From: Escherichia coli
GTDB lineage: Bacteria; Pseudomonadota; Gammaproteobacteria; Enterobacterales; Enterobacteriaceae
DNA: 25,350 bases
Strand: one strand, 5' to 3'
Assembly (NCBI RefSeq): GCF_003334255.1
Contig: NZ_QOWU01000041.1
Shown here piece after piece: positions 18,001 to 21,000 of this stretch. How positions within the stretch are numbered: position 1 is the first letter of the stretch; the number at the start of each line of letters is the position of its first letter. A program made the position numbers.

Positions 18001-21000
18001 TCTCCGGATGCCACCTTAAAGGCCGCAGCCTGTGCCGACGTCAGTGCCATCAGGGACGCTCCCGCCGGTATTCACCGGTCACGGCACTGCCGTTACGTGG
18101 TTGCGCCCGGGAGGGCGTGAGATAACGGTCGATCCCCTCCTGCATGGTCTGAATGTCAGCCTGAGCACGCGGATAGTCGAAAAAATAACGCCCGTCGTGG
18201 GGCGTGGCCTGAAGGGACGCAGTTCTGGCCCGATCAAGCGCCGCACGGACCTGATCAAGCTGGCGCATGACCGTCGCCAGCTCATCCTTTTCAGCGGCCT
18301 GAACGGGCAGAACCAGGGTCACGAGAAGCATCATCCCGGCGGTCCCCGTCAGACCGGCCGTTTTCCGGGATAATGCAGGAAGAGAAAACATACGCACCTC
18401 CGTCAGAATCAATGGGTGCGTACAGCATGCGTAAGGCAGGGGGAGGGATCAGCGATAAACTCTATTTGCAAAACTGAAAATTTTTACGGGAGAATACACG
18501 GGTGTGGATAAAGGCAAACAACCCGGAGCTCCTGGCATGAACGATATCATCAGTATAATTATTCTTCTGGCAGTCTATCTCATCGGCCTGATATTCATTG
18601 TCCTGATTTTCAATGACATAGACATAACATCGAAAAAGAGAAAGTACGAAAAAAAACTGAAAGAAGCGATAATAAATGGCAGTTTACAAAATAATGATAT
18701 CTATTTACTGGCCGAACGCTGGTCTGTCAGTCATGAACATATCAAAAGCGCACTGCTGTCAGTTTTCAATGATTTTCTGACTGATAACAACTTTTCACAT
18801 CACGTCCCCCGGGTCAGAGAACTGATTACATGGTACGAGAAATACGCCCCATTCACAGATCTCCCTGAGGATATAAAACAACAGTTACAAAATATAATCA
18901 ATTTACCCGATGCCAGTGAGTCAGAAGTGCAGTTATTAGCCTCCTCACTTCATGACATTTATAATTCTCGTCAGAAAAAAGAGAAGAAGGCCAGAAAAAT
19001 AAACTATGTTCTGGGGGCGGTCAGCATTGCCAGTTTCTGCATCACGCTGTTCCAGGCCTGTTCAAATAAATTCATTCCATCCTGAATGATTTATTCCTGT
19101 TTATTAAAACACGGCATCACTACACTTACTGTCTTATATCATTGGCGCTGACAACGTTGCCCCCCATGGATCTATGACGTCGTCAAGGCCATCACGATGT
19201 TCATTGTTTTCGTCAACATTGTTGTTATTCCGGCGCTGGCATTACCCGGACACTGACGCGCACTGACCGTAAGGGCGTGGCTTGTCTGCCGACACCCTGC
19301 CACAAAACAAGTTTTGCATCAGGGTGTCCGGCCTCTGTGGACTATAAATATTTCTTGAAGGATGCCATTGTCACGGTGACAGCCATACCCAGCAGCATGG
19401 CCGCCGGCCATATCAGCAGATTCGGGTACACGGCCGTCGGCCAGGAAAGATAGAGAATACAGGGAATATATATCGCCGGTTTAATGGACTTTTTCGCATG
19501 GTGATAAACAAAGCTGGATTCATACGCGGCACCATACCGGCGCAGATCACGTCTGCCCAGCCCCTCAACCACGGCCACCAGGATCACCATCACGAACAGT
19601 GGCACGGACAGCACGAGAATAATCACCCTGACCATCGTCACCACCGCCACATAAACCGTTGCCAGCAGGTAATCATGAAGATGATATGCCAGCCACTGGC
19701 TCAGCTCTCCGCTGAACTGCGATACACTCCGCCCCGCCGCCGTTACCGCCTGCTGCGACTGCAGCCATGACTGCATACCACTTTCCACAAACAGCCACTG
19801 ATACGCCACGGAAATCCAGCCCGGTACCGTCACTGACGGCGTGGACAGCAGCAGGCTGCGCGTGAACTCCGTCGACAGCCAGCCCAGCTCTGTATTCATG
19901 ACGGCACGACTGTGTGCCGCCCCCTCATCAGGCCAGAAAAACGTCATACCTGCATACTCAATCAGCAGACTCAGTAACAGTGAGGAGAGGAGCAGCCCCA
20001 CCAGAGCCCATGGCCAGCCCCACACCAGATTGTACAGCAACCCATGCTGACGGGGAGGGCGGGACTGCGGGCTGCGTTCTGCATCACGACGTGCTTCCGC
20101 CATGGTCACCTCCCTCCTCCGTCGCTATCGCCTGTACTGAAGGTGGAGCATTCCACCATCCTTCACCGGAGTGATAATTCTGTCGCATCGCCTCCGCCAC
20201 CCGGGAAATACTCTCCGGCATCAGCACATCATCCGTATCACCTGCCGGCAGCGGCATCCGGATCTTCCATAACTGTCCACCTTCCAGCAGGGCAAATGCC
20301 TGCCCCTTGGGCAGCGTGACAATATCTGCGGGCTCCAGCAGGGGGACTTTCACCGTCCCGACGCGATCCTGGGTACTGGAGGTGAAATCCTGACCGGCTG
20401 ACACATCTGCCGTATCCTGATGACCGGAGACCAGCGTCTTCGTGTAAATCTCCACCTGGGGCAGTTGTGTGGTCAGCAATTCCGCCGTCCGGTTCTCCCT
20501 GACGCGCAGCATGATCATGTTGTTAAAGTTCCCCTGAACCTGCGCCGTTTTGGCCGCATTACCAATACGCGCTTCAATATCCGATGACGTCTGGGTGTAC
20601 GCGGTCACCTGCATTCCGGCGCCGCCCCCCTTGTTGATGAGCGGAATGAATTCATCGCCCATCAGTTCGTTAAACTCATCACAGTGCAGGTTCACCACAT
20701 TTTTACCCGCCCCGCCAGCCGGCAGACCGGCATGCATACCGTGTTTGTATATATGCCCTGCCACACTCACCAGGTCCGCAAACATCGAATTTCCCACGGC
20801 ACTGGCCACCTCACTGTCACTGAGCGCATCGAGGCCGATATAAACCACCGCCTTTTTGCGGATCACCTGTTCCCAGTCAAAAATGGGGCGCGCATCGCTC
20901 ATATCCAGATAGTCCGGCGCCAGCAGCTCTGCAATCCTGCCGGTGGTGAGTTTTTCCAGTAACGGCAGCAGGGAAGCCACGATTTTGTCAAAATACGTAC

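Follow-up and report, generated by a model that had tools for sequence, protein, structure and literature searches.

What kind of gene occupies the AT-rich gap that interrupts the conjugation genes of an Escherichia coli integrative conjugative element (ICE), and what might it do there? The DNA in question is a stretch of 25,350 nucleotides from E. coli (hereafter the window), which constitutes the conjugation module of an ICE of mating pair formation type G (MPF-G; ICEclc/PAPI-1/ICEEc2-like). The gap, or slot, comprises nucleotides 18392–19341, the whole intergenic region from the start of the RAQPRD gene (18391) to the stop of the TIGR03747 gene (19342), and holds one intact open reading frame (ORF), here called ORF-A. 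An earlier inspection of the DNA without database searches (the sequence-only reading) had taken it for a single-gene insert which might serve in abortive infection or phage defence, in entry exclusion or as a toxin. The gene represents an undescribed family of accessory membrane proteins; it occupies an ICE cargo hotspot known from earlier work, and does not amount to a proven new system. Over 3.1 kb around the slot the window is identical to two chromosomes, that of E. coli 2015C-3121 and that of another Shiga-toxin-producing E. coli (STEC) isolate.

ORF-A and its family

ORF-A lies at nucleotides 18537–19085 on the + strand (549 bp), and most likely specifies a product of 182 amino acids. 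Two starts are available, GTG at 18504 (193 amino acids; the RefSeq annotation) and ATG at 18537. The second is the better one because all of the divergent homologues begin at the MNDIIS methionine. Intact homologues in E. coli show 95% to 62% identity. ORF-A is a genuine gene under purifying selection: relative to the 62%-identical homologue of E. coli A19, the ratio of nonsynonymous to synonymous substitution rates (dN/dS) is 0.32 over 170 codons, with a dS of 0.74, and this ratio equals that of the adjacent core genes RAQPRD and TIGR03758. The last ~9 residues of the window copy are unlike those of its relatives owing to a 1-nt indel, a change which falls after the second transmembrane (TM) helix.

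A word-indexed search of 5.8 billion proteins yielded nine close clusters, and all those with a source name were from E. coli. A profile search of 1.84 billion cluster representatives extended this to 94 proteins at E ≤ 0.001, among which 33 reached E ≤ 1e-10. Most of the 94 are 170–230 amino acids long, align end to end and possess the same two-TM layout, while all 33 of the full-length aligned members retain the hydrophobic helix at either end as well as three motifs (LAERW, EPFxELPENIxxQL and LAxSLSxLY..NQ). The source names are uniformly "hypothetical protein". ORF-A belongs to an undescribed family of ~180-residue proteins which are carried as single-gene accessory cargo on these ICEs.

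The absence of a recognisable domain, remarked upon in the sequence-only reading, was confirmed. Pfam gave nothing at E ≤ 0.001 with ORF-A alone or with all 33 family members, NCBIfam gave no match to ORF-A, its ICE models included, and PADLOC and PHROGs likewise returned no match (see below). Profile search of the PDB sequences recovered designed coiled coils only, plus a non-significant match to the FadR N-terminal domain (E=0.17). A PDC-S03 identity was considered on the strength of the A19 homologue (E=0.0025, matching length) and dropped, as no other member reproduced it.

Hydropathy analysis places the hydrophobic helices at residues ~4–26 and ~157–176, so that the opposite-strand protein with a hydrophobic helix at each terminus described from the DNA alone is indeed present. 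The lysine-rich hydrophilic core that had accompanied this description is not: the core contains 18 Lys+Arg and 18 Asp+Glu residues and is not net basic, and the lysine runs (KKRK...KK and RQKKEKKARK) flank the TM helices, just after TM1 and just before TM2. Because of these flanking runs the positive-inside rule suggests that the central ~125 residues are cytoplasmic and that both short termini are periplasmic. AlphaFold2, supplied with the family alignment, returned a confidently predicted all-helical model (predicted local distance difference test (pLDDT) 90.7; predicted TM-score (pTM) 0.72) with helices at residues 2–47, 54–61, 67–82, 84–107, 111–121 and 128–178; an earlier model from six close sequences was poor (pLDDT 63). 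As read from the secondary-structure string of the model rather than from its coordinates, the terminal TM helices would pair as a hairpin and extend into a cytoplasmic coiled stalk bearing a small four-helix domain with the family motifs. Foldseek comparison of the pLDDT 63 model with AFDB50 recovered solely uncharacterised homologues, from Salmonella, Serratia, Pectobacterium, Vibrio, Pasteurellaceae and Pseudomonas.

The cargo slot between RAQPRD and TIGR03747

The left flank of the slot is the RAQPRD-family ICE gene (18050–18391, − strand; NCBIfam TIGR01690, E=2.7e-29), which heads the downstream block of transfer genes and carries the same annotation in RefSeq at the identical locus of E. 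coli 2015C-3121. The right flank, the last gene after traD, encodes a TIGR03747 / DtrJ-like ICE membrane protein (19342–20109, − strand; NCBIfam TIGR03747, E=1.5e-92); in related loci this gene matches the DtrJ-like family of Pfam. The low GC content noticed at the outset is real, being 0.433 for nucleotides 18413–19341 and 0.37–0.43 over 18450–19200, versus 0.55–0.63 on either side. ORF-A itself has a GC of 0.388 (GC at third codon positions 0.45), the corresponding values for RAQPRD, TIGR03747 and traD being 0.61 (0.65), 0.57 (0.67) and 0.58 (0.64).

The interval was aligned among five ICE lineages from E. coli genomes. Two backbone blocks are kept in all five, whatever the cargo between them. 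The left boundary block (18392–18490, ~100 bp) can be aligned in every lineage, including those with an FxLYD gene or with no cargo, and its similarity stops after TGAAAATTT; with weaker conservation it recurs in other enterobacterial elements. It lies immediately 5' of the RAQPRD gene block, upstream, and probably includes a promoter or leader for that block. The right boundary block (19250–19341, − strand, 92 bp) lies directly 3' of the TIGR03747 stop codon and contains nested inverted repeats, GACACCC...GGGTGTC around CAAAAC-AA-GTTTTG. The RNA of nucleotides 19240–19345 (− strand) folds with −43.5 kcal/mol (z=−2.9), no T-run follows the block, and an Rfam scan of the window found no family, in this block or elsewhere. 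Possible roles of the block are 3' stabilisation or termination, the binding of a protein, or simply the anchoring of recombination at the hotspot. A promoter and terminator scan gave nothing above chance level; a TTGCAA-18-GAGAAT promoter-like pair upstream of ORF-A is a candidate found by eye.

Since both ends of the intergenic region are conserved backbone, the actual cargo is the variable low-GC cassette at ~18491–19249. The segment originally delimited (18413–19341) thus includes backbone as well as cargo, and its character as an insert stands insofar as this is a variable low-GC cargo site; it is not a one-off recent insertion, as relatives down to ~30% identity share slot and orientation.

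A trace of the left block was also met outside complete elements. About 240 complete E. coli genomes lacking the ICE junction carry an unannotated 186-bp relic, 72–75% identical to nucleotides 18290–18484 of the window, which consists of the 5' end of RAQPRD and the left boundary block. In the one case opened, that of E. coli BH100 (L010, NZ_CP025251.1 nucleotides 3253663–3253848), an FxLYD-domain gene and part of an IS21 element come next, and after them the pap fimbrial operon, which belongs to a pathogenicity island. We read the relic as the fossil of an ICE of this type.

ORF-A is not quite alone in the cassette. In several elements a second small gene, ORF-B, lies downstream of it and encodes a protein of 61–80 amino acids with two TM helices which begins MEFLRTALPFW.... 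In the window a deletion of ~112 bp took the ribosome-binding site, the start and the first TM helix, leaving a remnant at 19152–19256 (+ strand) which was recognised by alignment with E. coli 2013C-3033 and G1/2 and has a stop codon just upstream in frame (19149–19151). The description as a single-gene segment therefore holds for intact genes, with a start-less remnant in addition. ORF-B is intact in 2013C-3033, where it specifies 61 amino acids, and in KY171, SF-088 and A19 (intact coordinates: L003:3765–3950, L005:1721–1912 and L002:4748–4990); the SF-088 and A19 homologues show 62% and 37% identity. RefSeq leaves the intact gene unannotated in 2013C-3033 (L003) and KY171 (L009), and lists it as "hypothetical" in SF-088 and A19. 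Among E. coli ICEs ORF-B is commoner than ORF-A.

The ICE junction was detected in 115 of 5,426 complete E. coli genomes. The core of ORF-A is present in 23 of these 115, at least 80% of the gene in 13, and a family member was found in one (Pectobacterium polonicum) of 19 ICE loci of other Enterobacterales, collected by similarity to TIGR03747. ORF-A is cargo, and not a conserved core component of the MPF-G conjugation machinery.

Eight different slot states occur in the E. coli genomes. In the G1/2 type (13 genomes among the matches listed), the flanks of which are 98.5% identical to the window, ORF-A is internally deleted to its first few and last ~20 codons. KY171 displays a different deletion of ORF-A with a short tandem repeat at the junction. 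The common SF-088 type (more than 30 genomes among those listed) contains ORF-B only. Other slots hold a Panacea-domain gene (RM13752) or an FxLYD-domain secreted protein, or are empty (338 bp; ETEC1749). In the KY171 sequence (E. coli JNEC-KY171, L009:1476–2125) the junction repeat comprises about six copies of the 9-bp unit GGGCAATAC, and the 102-residue hypothetical protein annotated by RefSeq across it is probably spurious.

Among the 19 loci of other Enterobacterales the shortest slot measures 232 bp and the longest exceeds 3.5 kb; in every locus the GC content of the slot is below that of the flanks. As had been supposed from the window, the flanking genes can be nearly adjacent: 232 bp separates them in two Serratia liquefaciens loci, and 338 bp in ETEC1749. 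The slot of Pantoea sp. alder81 (L027:4463–7364, GC 0.35) contains the three-gene PADLOC Hp1/Hp2/Hp3 system (E=8.9e-67, 1.1e-41 and 2.5e-09), and that of Erwinia psidii (L028:1634–2671) an AbiD/PD-T4-5-like gene. A 61-residue membrane ORF is found in a Serratia slot, and contents of other slots include IS (insertion sequence) elements, several unrecognised proteins, and regulator-, efflux- and metabolic-like genes, as judged from their translations. Slot proteins with neither a PADLOC nor an NCBIfam match are encoded in L022 (196 amino acids), L023 (837 and 193), L026 (348), L030 (189) and L032 (270); they are further candidates for new conflict genes.

The cassettes appear to have been exchanged at the boundary blocks by homologous recombination, as judged from a comparison with E. 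coli strain 48. ORF-A is 94% identical between the two, the right boundary block 100% and the left 90%, versus 74–78% for the adjoining TIGR03758, RAQPRD and TIGR03747 genes; this mosaic pattern therefore points to exchange of the cassette between backbones. Co-divergence of ORF-A with its backbone had been considered because of the similar dS of the flanks, and was weakened by this movement in strain 48.

Strain 48 (NZ_CP166879.1) carries two copies of the ICE, at ~0.95 Mb and 5.19 Mb (L045 and L046), whose identity exceeds 99% in a comparison of 2.4 kb. One of them has IS66 beside TIGR03747 in place of traD, with no traD annotated within ~670 bp beyond TIGR03747.

The slot is the enterobacterial counterpart of GI-Hotspot 8, the traD–RAQPRD interval described as a defence hotspot of Pseudomonas islands, which holds a known defence system in 29% of instances in the wider dataset and is reported in Serratia, Salmonella and Klebsiella too (PMC12629846). 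Like it, the window slot lies between the traD side and the RAQPRD gene, its content varies between related elements, and a fraction of the enterobacterial slots contain defence-type genes (L027, L028 and RM13752), though the window cargo itself has no defence match. Unlike the Pseudomonas hotspot, which is dominated by CBASS (cyclic-oligonucleotide-based anti-phage signalling system) type III and other multi-gene systems (PMC12629846), the enterobacterial slots are mostly short (0.2–2.3 kb), often with single small genes for envelope proteins, and ORF-A is no recognised defence gene. In the window, moreover, TIGR03747 stands between traD and the slot. In enterobacterial ICEs, those of STEC among them, the hotspot of Pseudomonas islands also serves for the exchange of cassettes, and its short conserved boundaries are usable as search anchors.

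Relatives of ORF-A with 30–38% identity reside in exactly this slot, divergent from RAQPRD, in Salmonella, on a Klebsiella sp. chromosome, in P. polonicum and on two metagenomic contigs. Because members so distant, in two deep clades, share the slot, the association of family and slot is old or repeated. One clade is prophage-associated: a member on a viral contig is separated by two small genes from the portal and large-terminase genes, and its closest relative (60% identity) adjoins a Gp5-like gene, an S24 repressor-type peptidase and an integrase. Other members adjoin an AlwI-type restriction enzyme or a PIN/FitA toxin–antitoxin pair. The proposal that P0020 belongs to a tandem array of paralogues was rejected, both of its neighbours being unrelated small proteins.

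Possible functions of ORF-A

The reading which we favour, at a probability of roughly 0.4, is that ORF-A may be a single-gene membrane conflict or phage-exclusion protein. It is preferred because of the patchy distribution, the recombinational exchange, the low GC, the published defence hotspot, the prophage-like carriage and the restriction and toxin–antitoxin neighbours. A defence-type role, one of those proposed in the sequence-only reading, also fits the context, given the published hotspot (PMC12629846) and the AbiD-like, Hp1–3 and Panacea genes of related slots. As a stand-alone conflict protein ORF-A would benefit both host and element, would be dispensable for conjugation and would act at the inner membrane to counter phage or other foreign DNA that enters the cell. 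It might block DNA entry in the manner of prophage superinfection-exclusion proteins; alternatively, its cytoplasmic domain might sense infection, whereupon oligomerised TM hairpins would compromise the membrane, as in abortive infection.

Phage P22 SieA and SieB, T4 Imm, HK97 gp15 and lambda RexB are small prophage superinfection-exclusion or abortive-infection membrane proteins without enzymatic domains. ORF-A resembles these proteins in being a small inner-membrane protein and a single accessory gene of mobile elements, with one clade on prophage-like DNA. It differs in that the searches run revealed no resemblance to any of these proteins in sequence or fold, and in possessing TM helices at both extreme ends with a ~125-residue cytoplasmic helical domain between. 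The member near the portal and terminase genes of the viral contig also lies in an accessory region, which recalls the P2 old/tin locus, the cos-proximal gpA–gpQ defence hotspot (PMC9122126); this is a single viral locus and gpA was not detected on the fragment, so that equivalence is not established.

Several observations weigh against a role in conflict or phage exclusion. All eight ICE-borne members seen share this slot and the orientation divergent from RAQPRD, although they fall into two deep clades (rough neighbour-joining tree), and such constant placement would also suit a function in the biology of the ICE instead of host defence. A recognisable defence-type gene occurs in only 4 of the 27 related slot variants (8 from E. 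coli, 19 from other Enterobacterales). Fourteen proteins compared with PADLOC-DB 2.0 gave no reproducible match, only weak and inconsistent ones to PDC-S03, RT_IV and Cas11b (E=4e-4 to 0.03), and PHROGs contained no profile matching the family. The fold searches, which yielded uncharacterised homologues or generic helical bundles, support no specific mechanism. With tblastn, ORF-A had no match in 50,697 phage or 72,556 plasmid records, and one family locus was found among 2.9 million viral contigs. The chromosomal surroundings of one family member are ordinary, and association by context is weak evidence.

Entry exclusion was a further role suggested by the DNA alone, and size, location and fast evolution do fit it. 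ORF-A would here be an exclusion or immunity factor which hinders the mating apparatus when a like element arrives. The model is Eex of SXT/R391, an inner-membrane exclusion protein whose specificity determinants are cytoplasmic (PMC5812530); that review reports no such system for ICEs of this family. Like Eex and TraS of the F plasmid, ORF-A is a small, fast-evolving inner-membrane protein encoded in the transfer region: it has no enzymatic domain, its gene stands inside the type IV secretion system (T4SS) cluster, and its members diverge much faster (30–38% identity) than RAQPRD (55–57%) and TIGR03747 (67–71%). The ICE-borne members are always at this slot, where other lineages place different small envelope proteins (the FxLYD protein, ORF-B and the Serratia ORF). 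Unlike Eex and TraS, to which no homology was found, ORF-A is missing or deleted in most related elements, and family members occur on prophage-like DNA and at chromosomal sites with no T4SS nearby. Furthermore, the two near-identical elements of strain 48, at separate sites in one genome, each carry an intact ORF-A of the same allele (187 of 188 residues the same), a finding tempered by the leakiness of exclusion and by the chance that the second copy arose within the cell. We consider entry exclusion unlikely. Less likely again is its broader form, in which ICEclc/PAPI-1/SPI-7-type (MPF-G) elements would have, in ORF-A and the alternating FxLYD protein and ORF-B, their first determinants of entry exclusion or self-recognition, the cassette setting the exclusion group.

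The divergent orientation of ORF-A from RAQPRD, abutting the conserved upstream block, would also suit an accessory modulator, that is, a membrane-tethered sensor or regulator of transfer genes, of T4SS assembly or of envelope stress, or a protein of, for example, bacteriocin immunity. In the predicted structure two TM helices hold a cytoplasmic helical domain at the membrane, and the ...DIxxLAERWxxxRxxIxxxL segment looks helix-turn-helix-like by eye, the match to FadR mentioned above being non-significant. None of the searches run, however, gave a significant match to a DNA-binding or signalling domain. The upstream block belongs to the RAQPRD side, because elements that lack ORF-A have it in the same style; such elements are common, and in other genomes the gene occurs in the absence of any T4SS. 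A modulator of this kind is as unlikely as entry exclusion. A membrane toxin, or one half of a toxin–antitoxin pair with ORF-B that would stabilise the ICE, is very improbable. It would explain the two small membrane-protein genes in tandem in several elements, and a RefSeq-annotated Panacea-domain gene, read as antitoxin-type, does occupy the slot of another E. coli ICE. Yet ORF-A is intact and ORF-B destroyed in the window and in STEC2018-553, ORF-B occurs without ORF-A in the SF-088 type, and ORF-A is alone in Klebsiella (L042), where the next gene is only 100 bp away. Either assignment of toxin and antitoxin predicts lethal genotypes that exist, and the toxin envisaged in the sequence-only reading is disfavoured, there being no obligate partner and intact copies standing beside a destroyed small ORF. 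Hardly credible, finally, is a decaying or non-functional frame in an AT-rich spacer. Truncated or internally deleted variants (P0003, P0006, P0009, G1/2 and KY171) and the frameshifted C-terminal tail of the window copy would agree with decay; against it stand the dN/dS and dS values given above, the retention of length, both TM helices and three motifs in 94 divergent clusters, a co-evolution signal strong enough for the pLDDT 90.7 model, and the position of the tail change beyond TM2.

The conflict or phage-exclusion reading makes ORF-A a compact, easily cloned candidate for a new single-gene membrane function. Should it prove to be a defence or exclusion factor, it would add a new protein family to that catalogue; if not, it is one of many uncharacterised hotspot genes.

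Other genes of the transfer cluster

The type of the ICE is defined by its set of TIGR037xx genes, and the neighbouring transfer genes scanned are all on the − strand. Their order in the window is TIGR03755, TIGR03756, TIGR03757, the TraC ATPase gene (TIGR03744), TIGR03751, TIGR03752, TIGR03749, PFL_4703, TIGR03750, TIGR03745, TIGR03758, RAQPRD, the slot, TIGR03747 and TraD (TIGR03754), with traD at 20084–22201 (− strand; TIGR03754 match).

Between TIGR03757 and the TraC ATPase gene lie a TonB-dependent outer-membrane receptor gene (7888–9819, − strand; NCBIfam PRK13486, score 1481) and an ORF of 128 amino acids (10369–10755, − strand) whose family was not recognised. Together they look like a second cargo insertion within the transfer cluster, and the receptor insertion may correspond to the TraU–TraC hotspot of the Pseudomonas survey (PMC12629846). 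A 102-residue ORF at 2219–2527 (+ strand) shows weak matches to MazF/ChpB-type toxins, below the curated cut-offs (E=2.7e-12 and 1.7e-9). Upstream of traD, nucleotides 22194–23598 (− strand) encode a 276-residue protein with no family match and a 200-residue protein annotated by RefSeq as "restriction endonuclease". Since a Pfam Mrr_cat gene stands beside DUF2859 at the equivalent position in related ICE loci (L016 and L042), this nuclease-like gene appears to travel with the ICE backbone.

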